From Magallana gigas (taxonomy: Eukaryota): a stretch of 64,000 bases of DNA. A program made the translations under genes and the position numbers. Shown here piece by piece: positions 50,529 to 54,604 of the stretch. Position 1 is the first letter of the stretch; each line of letters opens with the position of its first letter. The notes beneath the pieces are model-generated. The model made no database searches and had not been told where the DNA came from. It worked only from the letters and a program-made list of their open reading frames with translations. The stretch lies in assembly GCF_963853765.1 (NCBI RefSeq), contig NC_088861.1:21548281-21612280 (forward strand), in the 5' to 3' direction.

Positions 50529-51217
50529 AAGCTTGACAGTCAAATATGGTTAGTAAATAGAAATTGTAAACAATTAAACATAAGAAACATGCACTATAAC
50601 AAATAAAGAGCACAATTTATTTTTCAAAATGGATCATATATCTATACTACATATTACCGTCAGCGATATTAAACTCTATTTAAACTGTATAAACTCAAGA
50701 AAATGCCGAGCATCTAAAAAACACATTGTATTAATCAACCATTACGCAAAAGATCATACCGAATTATCGATAGAATGAACTGTATTTTAGTACTTTGTTA
50801 TACATCCGATTTTGCTAAATGTGCGCAGGTAAACAGTCAACTGTCTGAATTACCGAGGTCTCTGTTTAATTTGATACGTAAATATTACAAAACAAAGGCA
50901 ATAGTTCCCTGGTTACAAAGCATTAATAATAATCAAAGTACTGAAGAACTGACGGGAGTTGATTTTGTCGATGTTTGTTTATCTTAAAATCAATGATATG
51001 TTATTTTGCTTGACAAGTACATGTAGTTTCTAATTTGTATTTGAAATACGCACATTTTTATAATATGAATTTTTGGACTTTTTCGACAAGAATGTCGAGA
51101 ACCCCCTATATGAATCATGTTAAATAATAGTTAGAGTAAAATTAATTCAATCAAAGTATGTATTAGTAATACAAAATATTTCTAAAAAATTGTATGGATC
51201 CAAGCAATATTGAACTC

Positions 51218-51770
51218 TAGTCTCGTTCAACCAAACGCTCGGCTGACACCGTAAATCTCCGACAAGCATTTACGGAGACAGCCTAGCGTCCAGTTGAAGG
51301 TATCACACCGGTAATTGTTTTCACTATATAGCACTATAGAGGGGAAAACATTCTTAAAAATCAGTTTGTATTCCTCATGACAAAATATTCGGAGGAAATG
51401 TTATTTGTTACCTATCTCATCAGCTAACACCATAAAAAGGGCAAGCGAACCTGCGTTTTCTCAAAATATCTAGCTCCAAACAGGTCTACCCTCAAAACCA
51501 CGTGTTTTCCATTTGTATTTAAACAGACTGCACACTCCCCAGGAAGCTGCTGCATGTGCCCTGAAAGAAGTAGTCCCTGTGAAAAAAGATCATCACCTAA
51601 CAAAATACATGAAATATCCTACTCAGTGGTACACAATTTTTTATAACTGAGTAAAGGAAAATGTAAAAATGCAGTCAAGGAAAAAAATAATTCTGAAGTA
51701 TATATGGAACTACAATTGACAAGTTCATTTTGATTGGCCGATTACCGGTGTGATACCTTGAACGAGGCTA
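51218..51770. mobile_element. Foldback MITE, copy 4, with 10-bp target duplication and a nested 459-bp MITE insertion
   Basis: Flanked by TATTGAACTC (51208-51217 and 51771-51780). The right arm is interrupted at 51299-51757 by a TIR MITE with TTGAA duplication. Confidence 0.85.
51299..51757 (-). mobile_element. TIR MITE (459 bp), TIR GGTATCACACCGGTAAT, 5-bp target duplication TTGAA, nested in the foldback element
   Basis: Ends are ggtatcacaccggtaattg ... cgattaccggtgtgatacc. The host foldback arm sequence resumes exactly after the duplicated TTGAA. Confidence 0.8.
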
Positions 51771-54604
51771 TATTGAACTCTGGCGTAGGAATACATACGA
51801 CTACAAAAAATATTTAAATTATTCGTACATTGTACCATTTAAAATCTGACTATTTTCAAGGTATTTATAAATAAGTTTCCTTGAAAAACAATGCTTTAGC
51901 ATACATTACATCGAATTCATCAATCATTTTCAAGAACTAAGTCTTGTCAGCAGCGATGATTTGTGCTGAGGTCCAAACACTGTTTCACTTTCGGTTTGTC
52001 TGATTAACTGCATAGGAGAGTTGATTAAAATCAACTCCCAAAAAACGAAACGAAAATCAAAACAAGCTAACACCACCGTCATGTGAAAACTGTCAACGCA
52101 TTGAAATATTTAACCTCAATTTACTTTACAAAATCGGCACCAATGTATTTTGCATGTTTCGAAGATTCCCTTCGCACGCGAACTGTTGCACAACAAACAA
52201 ATTCATCTTTCTCAGATCGACCCGTTTATCATAAGTCATGGCTGCTTTAAACAAAAAACCTCGTTTTAGAAGTATGGAATTAAACATGAATTATTAAAGA
52301 CCGGGGTTGACCTAGTTGAATATCCACACGGACGGCAATTAAGCATATAAGAAAGCAGGTCCCTCCTCCAAACTGATAACACGGCAGAGTGAATCTATTA
52401 ATAGATAGCTGCATACCAGAAGCACGTGCTGATCAGAGAACTACATAATTTTAATGGTCATTTAAAAATGAAACGGTGTGCATAGTTCCTTTCCCTGATT
52501 TTCATCTTTAAGTAATAAGCATCTACACATGCATGTACTTCTAAATTGACCACTGCCAATACAAGCATCCCTTTTGTTGTTTTGTTTTTTGTATCTAGAG
52601 CTTTGTTAAAACATCTATCATAGTAAGCATCATTTCTTCACATACATGTAATTATTTAGAAAATACTTTAAACTTAAAAAAAAAACCACCAAGAAATTCA
52701 CTGGTCAGAATAACTCTTATCAACAACAGTGTGGGTTAGCTGCAAGAGGCTAATGCACAACTAGTCCTGACTCAGTGGGGAATCCCTCCCGCCAAATGTC
52801 AATAAATCAGCCTCCAAATCTGCAAAAATGAAAGAGGTTCCAGGGAGGAAAAACTATATCTACCTGATGATTTTGCATGTGGGACTGAACTTTAATTATC
52901 AGAAATATTTTAAAAAAATATTCACATACAATTTATTAAATTAGATGTTAAGGTTACACACTGTAGTTCACTGTAGTAGATTACAAGCTCAAGTTTCCTT
53001 TTGGTTTACCTCTGCCCTAATAAAATTCCCTCCAAAACATTCTTGTAATCCAAATTATGGCGGAAAAGATCAAACGGAAGAGAAATTGTAAAGTTTTTCA
53101 ACTCATAAATTGGAATGTAGAAGAATTATCGACTAGTGATCTAAGATAGTGCAAAATGAGACATATGAAGACTGATGATTTACAGGGGAGTTTGTTGAAC
53201 GTTAATTCTGCACGATTCTGTCAGAACAGCAATAACTTAGGAATGTCCCCATTGTTTATGCAGACCCATTAGAGGCTGTCCGATATGGTGGAAATCAAAT
53301 TTTGGAAAGAAATTAGACTTTATTGAAGGGACAACTTTTGACAATATGGTTTTACAGAGCTGTATTCTAGCCCAAAAAAACATCTGTGGGAAAGTTGGAT
53401 TTTTCGCTAGAATAATGATATCAGCATGATCAGTGGCATCAGTGCATAGGATTGCTTTTAAAATTTCTCAACTAATGTGATGACCTATATGTTTATAATA
53501 GAAAACTGCTAGAACCTGTGACCTGGGAGGCCCCATGCGTAAACAGATATTGGAACTTGATACTATCAGTGTGAAGCTGCAGGACTGACTCTCCGGCTCT
53601 ACACAAGTGTGTGTTCTTTCTCTTTGTTTTTAGATTACCAGTGATGATAGAGTAATAAATCAATTAAGAAGGATTACTTAGTGTTATTCAGTTTTGAGGT
53701 AAGATAAGCTGTCCCGCCATTTACTGTGCGTCTCTAGCAATAGGCATTTCCGGTAGGAATGTAAACAAAAAGCCGATTTCTCATCTGTCAATCAAATTTG
53801 AGGAAATTTGAATTTCTGGTTCACTTCAAAATTTTGAATATGAATTTCTCAAGTAGTAATGCATCAATAATAATTGTTTTACTATCTAGATGCCTTTCAG
53901 TTTACTTTAGTTGCATGACAAAATTTAATTTATAGTTTTTGCTGATTAAAGTGTTAATTCAGAAATTTATCCTCTGAAGTGAAAGGTGGCAAGAAAATTG
54001 AAATTTCCTCCATTTTCCTCATTGGCTGCTATTTATACCCCAGACCCGGTCTTTAAGTTTCTTCTTAAATAAGTCCAAAAACCCGTAAAATGTCGACCCG
54101 GGTTTGCCTACCCATTTTACCAACTTGGAAATCAACAATCGTCAATAAATTCCTAAATACGCATTGTTGTCTATCAATATTTACAGCGAATACAAATATA
54201 CCGGTCTGAAACATATCCTTAAAATTTAAATGACATTGGATAATTGAAAAATCTCGATCTGTTTTTATTTTGTCCCGGCCCGGGTTTGCTTACCCATTTC
54301 ACCACGACTCGTATGGAATACCGAACTTGAAGCTATAAATTGATTGAAACTCGCCTTTCCTTTATTACAATGTATTATTTTCGTAATAACTGAGATTTGA
54401 CACAGCAATAGCTTAACATTTTTGCAATTTATATTTTCCTTTCCATAAGGATTATTTATGTTAAATAACGTTGAACTTGACTCAGTAGTTCTTGAGAAGA
54501 GGATTGTTTTGAAATGGAACCCCTTTTTCTACAGTTTCTAGGTTACTCCCGCTTTGAATAAAGATCGGCCTTCATTTCTGAAATTTATATTCGCCTTCCC
54601 ATAA

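Follow-up and report, generated by a model that had tools for sequence, protein, structure and literature searches.

Three-level nesting of a repeat, a hairpin element and a 459-bp inverted-repeat element in the Magallana gigas genome

The locus and its repeats

The window analysed here (the whole stretch of 64,000 nucleotides of the Magallana gigas genome, to which all positions refer) contains two copies of a repeat called family A, four copies of a short hairpin element and two copies of a 459-bp element, one of them near the gene RPL24. In copy 2 of family A the three are found one inside the other, i.e. the 459-bp element in the hairpin and the hairpin in family A. This three-level nesting had been proposed in the initial annotation; it is confirmed, coordinates included, with sequence evidence behind each step. 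The layering is genuine, yet ordinary for a repeat-rich genome of the oyster type.

Family A is known here from two copies, both on the + strand and both with the hairpin, and contains no usable ORF. Copy 1 (7683-8315) carries the corresponding hairpin at 7953-8066 and lacks the 459-bp element. Copy 2 is in two parts: the left one (50927-51207) displays 218 matches and 35 mismatches (86.2%) to 7683-7942, and the right one (51781-52043) 209 matches and 29 mismatches (87.8%) to 8077-8315.

The hairpin element and its target sites

The foldback element announced at four places (1577, 7953, 11276 and 51218) is found at each of them, as a near-perfect palindrome of 101-114 bp. Two copies stand outside family A: an independent copy at 1577-1681 (105 bp) and an independent insertion at 11276-11376 (101 bp), inside a 16-bp tandem array. 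The two others are carried by family A, at 7953-8066 (114 bp) in copy 1 and at 51218-51298 plus 51763-51770 in copy 2, where the right arm is split by the 459-bp element. In this last case the segment 51218-51298 comprises the left arm, a shortened loop and the proximal right arm (88-91% substitution identity with the three remaining window copies), and 51763-51770 (CGAGGCTA) is the distal end of the right arm. Overall, the substitution identity among the four window copies is 88-95%.

Like a MITE, the hairpin element is short and non-coding and has terminal inverted repeats, in the form of two 46-nt arms (consensus TAGTCTCGTTCAACCAGACGCTCGGCTGTCTCCGTAAATCTCCGAC-loop-reverse complement); its sole through-reading frame, of 34 codons, is an artefact of the palindrome. 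Its ends are TAGTCTCG...CGAGACTA, common to copies with and without family A; the copies begin with TA and most end with TA. Folded as single-stranded DNA they form near-perfect hairpins (-37 to -58 kcal/mol, z = -8.6 to -18.7), and none of 200 shuffled sequences folded as well.

Duplications of 10 bp had been reported for three copies, two of them perfect, and this holds, the third one matching at 8 of 10 positions. The 11276 copy lies between perfect 10-bp duplications (11266-11275 = 11377-11386 = AGTTCACCAG; full span with duplications 11266-11386). Removing the element and one 10-mer restores the 16-bp tandem period, which indicates that this duplication is real. In family A copy 2 the left and right duplications (51208-51217 and 51771-51780) are identical (TATTGAACTC); in copy 1 they are diverged (7943-7952, TATCGAACTC, and 8067-8076, TATTTAACTC; 8/10). 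The 1577 copy is flanked by TTTTCGGCGT and GTAAAAAATC, with no recognisable duplication. From the base composition of the window, the chance of a 10/10 match is 2.5e-6 and that of a match of at least 8/10 is 8.6e-4.

Further hairpin copies were recovered via spurious ORFs that read through the arms (peptide search, five proteins). In Saccostrea cucullata (L003 10035-10625) a 591-bp long form has the same arms, 93-95% identical to those of the window, and both its flanks are (A)TTAGCCAAC (9-10 bp). In an ENA metagenome contig (L004 1400-1493) the flanks AGCAAAGCGC and AGCAAAGCGT match at 9 of 10 positions. Neither of these two copies has family A sequence on either side. Clean duplications thus accompany four of the six complete independent insertions, with lengths of 10 bp, 10 bp (8/10 in the older copy), 9-10 bp and 9/10 bp; at the remaining two (window 1577 and L005) no clean duplication was found. 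As read from these flanks, the duplication size of the hairpin element is 9-10 bp rather than strictly 10.

A 20-mer of the arm had 0 matches in viral, JGI metagenome and prokaryote genome contigs, and a degenerate 26-mer of the arm 0 matches in the prokaryote genome and viral collections. In the literature, string searches with the element sequences led to unrelated primer matches only. For the Gypsy pol an exact look-up gave no result, and a homology search gave a 100% identical protein on short Logan contigs only, which carry none of the three repeats. The “proteins” K1RB77 of Magallana gigas and LOC134260723 of Saccostrea cucullata are translations through hairpin copies and should be treated as annotation artefacts.

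The initial annotation had placed the hairpin insertion before the duplication of family A. Pairwise comparison of the hairpin copies and of both family A copies supports this order. The hairpin occupies the same site in both copies, and the family-A-borne pair displays 87.6% substitution identity, against 86.2% and 87.8% for the flanks (Fisher p = 1.0). GAGGCTA is the terminal variant of both, as opposed to GAGACTA in L003 and the remaining two window copies; they also have in common a loop start, CAAGCA, present in no other copy. The same site, the shared derived changes and a divergence equal to that of the flanks argue for one insertion before family A was copied. Had the family A copies been older, the hairpin would have struck both independently at the same preferred site; the target 10-mers do loosely resemble the arm of the element (GTTCAACCAG compared with AGTTCACCAG; TTGAAC inside TATTGAACTC), which could hint at a target preference, but the derived states common to the pair, and a divergence exactly matching that of the flanks, point to one ancestral insertion and make independent hits very unlikely. 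We give just as little credit to the idea that the hairpin is an integral part of family A, with the 1577 and 11276 copies as fragments of it. Both window copies of family A do have the hairpin at the same place and no hairpin-free copy was found, but the copies at 1577, 11276, L003 and L004 have identical end points, with no family A sequence alongside, and inside family A the hairpin has a 10-bp direct repeat at its two sides, without mismatch in copy 2, a feature that an integral segment does not need. These same ends away from family A support the hairpin as a separate mobile unit, probably foreign to the repeat that carries it.

That the palindrome is kept as a hairpin RNA gene (e.g. a microRNA or small-RNA precursor), and is not only a transposon relic, seems hardly credible. 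The hairpins are very stable, the arms are well conserved between the window and Saccostrea cucullata, and at one arm position the two arms vary in concert (AAATC in some copies, AAAAC in either arm of L004). Yet an Rfam search of the whole window gave no match, and the copies have target duplications and variable loops, the older ones decaying freely (arm-to-arm identity of 80-83% in the family-A-borne hairpins and 91-93% in the other copies). Duplications, loop variation and free decay together correspond to the behaviour of neutral transposon copies.

The 459-bp element and its insertion site

The right arm of the 51218 hairpin had been described as split by a 459-bp MITE. The element is there (51299-51757, + strand), non-coding and with no long ORF, between perfect 17-bp inverted ends (GGTATCACACCGGTAAT and ATTACCGGTGTGATACC) and with TTGAA on both sides. 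The left TTGAA (51294-51298) forms the last 5 bases of the hairpin segment 51218-51298 and the right one is at 51758-51762. A second copy (16576-17035, - strand, flanks ATGTA and TGTAA) aligns to the first in reverse orientation, at 95.6% identity (439 matches, 20 mismatches, 1 gap), the homology stopping exactly at the inverted ends. As announced, it lies just upstream of RPL24: it ends 118 bp before the start codon, the first exon (...CTTTCGGTCTTTCAACTTCCGGTCTCAAACATGAA|GTGAGT) placing the ATG at 17154, with further exons at 17291-17371, 22538-22786 and about 30413-30465. RPL24 is a highly expressed gene, and this copy falls within its proximal promoter region. Inverted ends matching at 17 of 17 positions, no coding capacity and several copies whose homology ends at the repeats are the features of a MITE.

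Other copies were sought via read-through peptides, with four proteins recovered. The copy in L011 is 98.9% identical to that at 16576 and is flanked by TTCAA and TTGAA. Three copies are 95.6-98.9% identical and a fourth 84%; L012 contains only the core of the element, with different ends, and so carries no information on duplications. Rfam gave no match on L011.

The proposed TTGAA duplication stands at the nested copy, where it is perfect and an empty site is available; its 5-bp length is probable, not proven. Excising the element with one TTGAA restores the arm ...GTTGAACGAG... of the other hairpin copies, which carry a single TTGAA at the insertion point and so act as paralogous empty sites. 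The flanks match at 5 of 5 positions in this copy and at 4 of 5 in L011, and the second window copy is without a clean 5-bp duplication, ATGTA and TGTAA having only TGTA (4 bp) in common. On this one perfect case, the element probably makes a 5-bp duplication. It could be argued instead that there is none, the ends being AGG...CCT with a 3-bp TGA, or the right TTGAA belonging to a longer form of the element. The ends are indeed readable one base longer in every copy; the right flanks of L007 and L011 start with TTGAAG and are homologous over at least 98 bp (84-85%), with unrelated left flanks; and the second window copy has just its 4 bp. But AGG...CCT ends leave the other two copies with 0/3 and 2/3, whereas GG...CC ends give them a 4-bp exact repeat and 4/5. 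Moreover every other hairpin copy has a single TTGAA in the arm, so that at most one TTGAA is the element's, and GATACC is the precise point at which the homology between the two window copies ends. We thus hold the absence of a 5-bp duplication to be unlikely.

Order of events and relation to known transposons

Element boundaries, duplications, order of events and relative ages are established by this analysis. It is highly probable that non-autonomous DNA transposons of the MITE type inserted three times in succession at this locus, by a cut-and-paste mechanism. Family A, a repeat of ~520 bp, would be the oldest layer. A palindromic element of ~100 bp, made of a short loop between two 46-nt arms, would then have entered it, duplicating its 10-bp target TATTGAACTC; the empty site in family A is inferred, not seen. 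The composite of family A and hairpin would have been copied to a second place, after which 7683-8315 and 50927-52043 would have reached ~13% substitution divergence. Last, the 459-bp element with its 17-bp inverted ends would have landed in one hairpin, in the right arm, with a duplication of TTGAA. That it is the youngest follows from its absence from family A copy 1, from the hairpin arm restored by its excision with one TTGAA, and from the identity of its two window copies (95.6%), far above that of the family A copies. Since neither the hairpin nor the 459-bp element contains a gene, transposases encoded elsewhere must move both, with staggered cuts whose offset would be 9-10 nt in the case of the hairpin element and probably 5 nt in that of the 459-bp element. 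The Pfam scan of the window ORFs, which gave only gag/pol and a weak integrase match, revealed no transposase candidate in the window, and the search for an autonomous partner of either element gave none.

The locus is a clean textbook case of transposon activity dated by nesting in a bivalve genome, of little import beyond annotation. With their ends and duplication lengths now defined, the two MITE families can enter a repeat library. A broader picture is speculative and, to our judgment, rather improbable: the hairpin would be a long-lived, possibly still mobile family across oyster genera, its arms being matched by arm-to-arm copying, and the 459-bp element might favour targets of the form TTSAA, the hairpin arm being an example, and ride into large tandem arrays (2,414-bp unit, L008-L011). 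If true, both families could be used as markers to follow the evolution of oyster genomes and the growth of repeats from transposons.

Non-autonomous Helitron/Helentron-type elements make no target duplication, end in a 3' hairpin and have a 5' segment complementary to a subterminal 3' one. Family A copy 2 carries a 3' hairpin, in which GAGTTGATT (52018-52026) pairs with AATCAACTC (52029-52037), and a 5'/3' complementarity of 13-14 nt (52027-52039 pairs with 50954-50966 as a 13-nt perfect inverted repeat); family A might be of this type, as judged from two copies, on which its true ends cannot be fixed.

A target-site duplication of 9-11 bp is the hallmark size of the Mutator/MULE superfamily, and the 9-10 bp of the hairpin element fall within it. 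The element is similar to MULEs in that its duplication varies by one base between insertions and its inverted arms are long; it differs in being almost all arm (46 + 46 nt) and in its ends, TAGTCTCG, which are not a recognised Mutator terminus, and no MURA-type transposase with such ends was found. In Drosophila Foldback (FB) the target duplication is 9 bp, close to that observed here, and the hairpin element likewise is a fold-back inverted repeat over nearly its whole length. FB arms however extend over hundreds to thousands of bp with tandem subrepeats. Those found here consist of 46 nt of unique sequence, in which Tandem Repeats Finder detects no repeat in any copy, and do not correspond to a Drosophila-type Foldback. 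A Tc1/mariner-Stowaway MITE, with its TA-only duplication, does not fit either, the direct repeats running 9-10 bp beyond TA. As a guess, a Mutator-like or Foldback-like transposase may have moved the hairpin element, which would fit the 9-10-bp duplication and the long inverted arms. MULE transposases occur in all mollusc genomes surveyed (PMC10294476).

The 459-bp element has ends beginning GGTATCAC, with flanks TTGAA, TGTA or TTCAA. Transib elements make 5-bp duplications and their ends begin with a CACNGTG-like motif, which these ends do not. Transib is besides nearly absent from molluscs, with one element in the survey (PMC10294476). The ambiguity of the flanks led us to consider Spy, invertebrate DNA transposons with inverted ends, reported from molluscs too, which insert between AAA and TTT without duplication and have ends following GGANNNNG (PMC4122938); both the flanks and the ends of the 459-bp element differ from these. 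Ginger was rejected.

MITEs form a considerable share of bivalve genomes, in which they are abundant together with MULE, hAT and Tc1/mariner transposons (PMC10294476). The two elements described here are similar to them in being short, non-coding and multi-copy, with terminal inverted repeats and target-site duplications (of probable constant length only in the hairpin element). They do not differ in kind from known MITEs, only the particular families being lineage-specific, and their relative order was obtained by the same standard logic as in other nested-insertion dating of transposons, one element inside another.

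Order of insertions in the nested locus

All four copies of the hairpin element, a palindromic foldback MITE of about 100 bp, that the initial annotation had listed were found in the sequence: 1577-1681, 7953-8066, 11276-11376 and 51218-51298 plus 51763-51770 (named below by their start). The element is built of two 46-nt arms around a loop of 4-30 nt, starting with TAGTCTCG and ending with CGAGACTA. Substitution identity between copies is 88-95%, and folded as DNA they form near-perfect hairpins (-37 to -58 kcal/mol, z down to -18.7).

Two of these hairpins (7953 and 51218) are borne by family A, a repeat present twice in the window (copy 1, 7683-8315; copy 2, 50927-52043). 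With the 459-bp element nested in copy 2 (a TIR MITE, 51299-51757) removed, the two copies align end to end and carry the hairpin at the identical site. Both family-A-borne hairpins have the terminal GAGGCTA (GAGACTA in the other two window copies and in L003, a Saccostrea cucullata contig) and the loop start CAAGCA, found in no other copy. The substitution identity between copy 1 and copy 2 is 86.2% in the left part, 87.6% in the hairpin and 87.8% in the right part (Fisher p = 1.0). The hairpin is thus as diverged as its flanks: it was inserted once into family A and the composite was copied afterwards, as had been claimed. The arm-to-arm identity, 80-83% in these two hairpins versus 91-93% at 1577, 11276, L003 and L004 (an ENA metagenome contig), agrees with a single early insertion. 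One arm position co-varies on both arms, being AAATC in most window arms and AAAAC on both arms of the L004 copy (1400-1493) and on the right arm of 11276; this suggests either occasional copying of one arm onto the other or an origin of subfamilies from symmetric masters.

The 459-bp element is the youngest of the three nested layers, because one copy of family A carries it and the other does not, cutting it out together with one TTGAA gives back the arm sequence GTTGAACGAG of the other hairpin copies, and identity between its two copies in the window is 95.6%. Divergence, excision and copy comparison therefore support the proposed chronology, family A, then the hairpin, then the TIR MITE.

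From the sequence of its two copies, family A may itself be a mobile element, since it has inverted ends of its own and a 3' hairpin: its 5' region holds GGGAGTTGATTTT, complementary to the 3'-end AAAATCAACTCCC (50954-50966 with 52027-52039), and the 3' end also takes part in a small hairpin. Copy 1 displays a looser 32-nt inverted repeat (7691-7722 and 8300-8331). On its right, copy 2 is truncated by, or borders on, another repeat (52042-52267, 85% identical to 37514-37743).

Target duplications of the hairpin element

The 10-mers flanking the hairpin are identical at 11276 (AGTTCACCAG) and at 51218 (TATTGAACTC), match at 8/10 positions at 7953, and are unrelated at 1577, where flank comparison gave no duplication. 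At the base composition of the window, the chance of such a match is 2.5e-6 for 10/10 and 8.6e-4 for at least 8/10. The 11276 copy sits within a 16-bp tandem array, and its 10-bp repeat is a duplication, not a by-product of the array, because taking out the element and one 10-mer brings back the 16-bp register. The duplicated targets (11266-11275 and 51208-51217) resemble the element arm (AGTTCACCAG versus GTTCAACCAG in the arm; TTGAAC within TATTGAACTC), which may be due to target preference or to chance.

DNA scans of viral, metagenome and prokaryote collections returned no copy of the hairpin element. Searching the protein database with peptides read through its arms gave five spurious proteins, four of them traceable to DNA, and placed the element also in Magallana gigas (Ostreidae) and Saccostrea cucullata. 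The only recognisable part of LOC134260723 (S. cucullata) and K1RB77 (M. gigas) is translated hairpin arms (P0135, P0138; L003 10001-10642), and both look like annotation artefacts. L003 carries a 591-bp long form (10035-10625), in which hairpin arms surround about 480 bp of unrelated interior, with (A)TTAGCCAAC on each side (9 or 10 bp, depending on the assignment of the terminal A). The L004 copy is flanked by AGCAAAGCGC and AGCAAAGCGT, its terminal TA being one base short. On the Logan contig L005 the right end is degraded and no clean flanking repeat was found; another contig, L006, has no more of a long form than its right half. A 9-10-bp duplication is therefore present in 4/6 complete, independent insertions, a number too small for a census, and this supports a mover that would be a transposase cutting its target with a 9-10-nt stagger. 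The duplications initially described as 10 bp long are borne out at three window copies, with a length of 9-10 bp rather than strictly 10; as a rule they have exceptions at 1577 and L005.

The 459-bp element

This element has perfect 17-bp inverted ends, and an ORF scan detected no long ORF. The nested copy has a perfect 5-bp duplication, TTGAA, with paralogous empty sites in the other hairpin copies. At the second window copy (16576-17035) the flanks are ATGTA (left) and TGTAA (right), only TGTA (4 bp) being common. Searching with peptides a second time and scanning one metagenome collection yielded further copies. The same 2,414-bp unit occurs on the contigs L008 (2515 bp), L009 (2491 bp), L010 (2391 bp) and L011 (2867 bp); the four samples behind them are independent and comprise two ENA metagenomes, one Logan run and one JGI metagenome. 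Its 459-bp copy is 98.7-98.9% identical to that at 16576, with TTCAA and TTGAA as flanks. Because the first 453 bases of L011 recur at its end with 3 mismatches, the unit is a tandem repeat and not a circle; it has no Rfam match and no convincing ORF. It probably represents a macrosatellite of high copy number that has taken up the element. On L007 a copy 84% identical shares at least 98 bp with this unit to the right of the element and nothing to the left, so there may be a longer form that includes a tail.

Were the ends one base longer (AGG...CCT), the nested duplication would be 3 bp; this reading fits worse, being a poorer match to the remaining copies. That the element makes a 5-bp duplication is quite probable rather than established, the duplication being perfect only in the copy that splits the 51218 arm. 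The ends match neither Spy (PMC4122938) nor Transib.

The copy at 16576-17035 is, as annotated, near RPL24, ending 118 bp upstream of the ATG (17154); from its end to the likely start of transcription the distance is about 85-100 bp. The gene is spliced and more than 13 kb long, and its additional exons lie at 17291-17371, 22538-22786 and about 30413-30465. Ahead of the first exon, which stops directly after ATGAA, comes a pyrimidine-rich CTTTCGGTCTTTC start region (17120-17165).

Neighbouring repeats and known elements

The window is eukaryotic, repeat-rich and 34% G+C. A Ty3/gypsy retrotransposon (39855-49147), 1.8 kb from the nested locus, is younger still than the 459-bp layer, because its two 1,087-bp LTRs (TG...CA) are 100% identical; its duplication is ATTC (4 bp). 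Its frames are open (gag 429 aa, pol 1,468 aa), the nearest named relatives of pol in a protein homology search are from bivalves (Pinctada, Mytilus; about 50%), and an identical protein is present in Logan run SRR13374887. The insertion is very recent and possibly active. The bivalve relatives of pol, together with the occurrence of the hairpin element in M. gigas and S. cucullata, make an oyster or something closely related to one the most likely source of the window. The satellites have 168-bp and 131-bp units: the former (8.7 copies, 28310-29768) lies inside an RPL24 intron; the latter (10.3 copies, with many TTGAACCC / GGGTTCAA palindromes) belongs to a complex block (11207-13054; 16-bp, 32-bp, 66-bp and 131-bp units) with the 11276 hairpin at its edge. 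Unrelated palindromic or inverted-repeat elements, with arm identities of 80-92%, lie at 1943-2097, 58974-59082 and 17515-17789 with 18237-18510; foldback-type elements are common in the source genome. A 172-aa ORF (38687-39205) has a weak phage-integrase (tyrosine recombinase) match, E = 0.0018, below the Pfam cut-off; it may be what is left of a Crypton- or DIRS-like element.

The simplest account is that non-autonomous DNA transposons would have inserted repeatedly by cut-and-paste, moved by enzymes from elsewhere; the insertion footprints are observed, the enzymes presumed. Bivalves are rich in MITEs and in MULE, hAT and Tc1/mariner transposons (PMC10294476), so the locus is not unexpected: its nested transposons are of an ordinary kind, here well preserved. 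The arms of the hairpin element differ from those of Drosophila Foldback, which consist of tandem subrepeats. In its 9-10-bp footprint and long arms, the hairpin element is similar to Mutator-like and Foldback-like elements.
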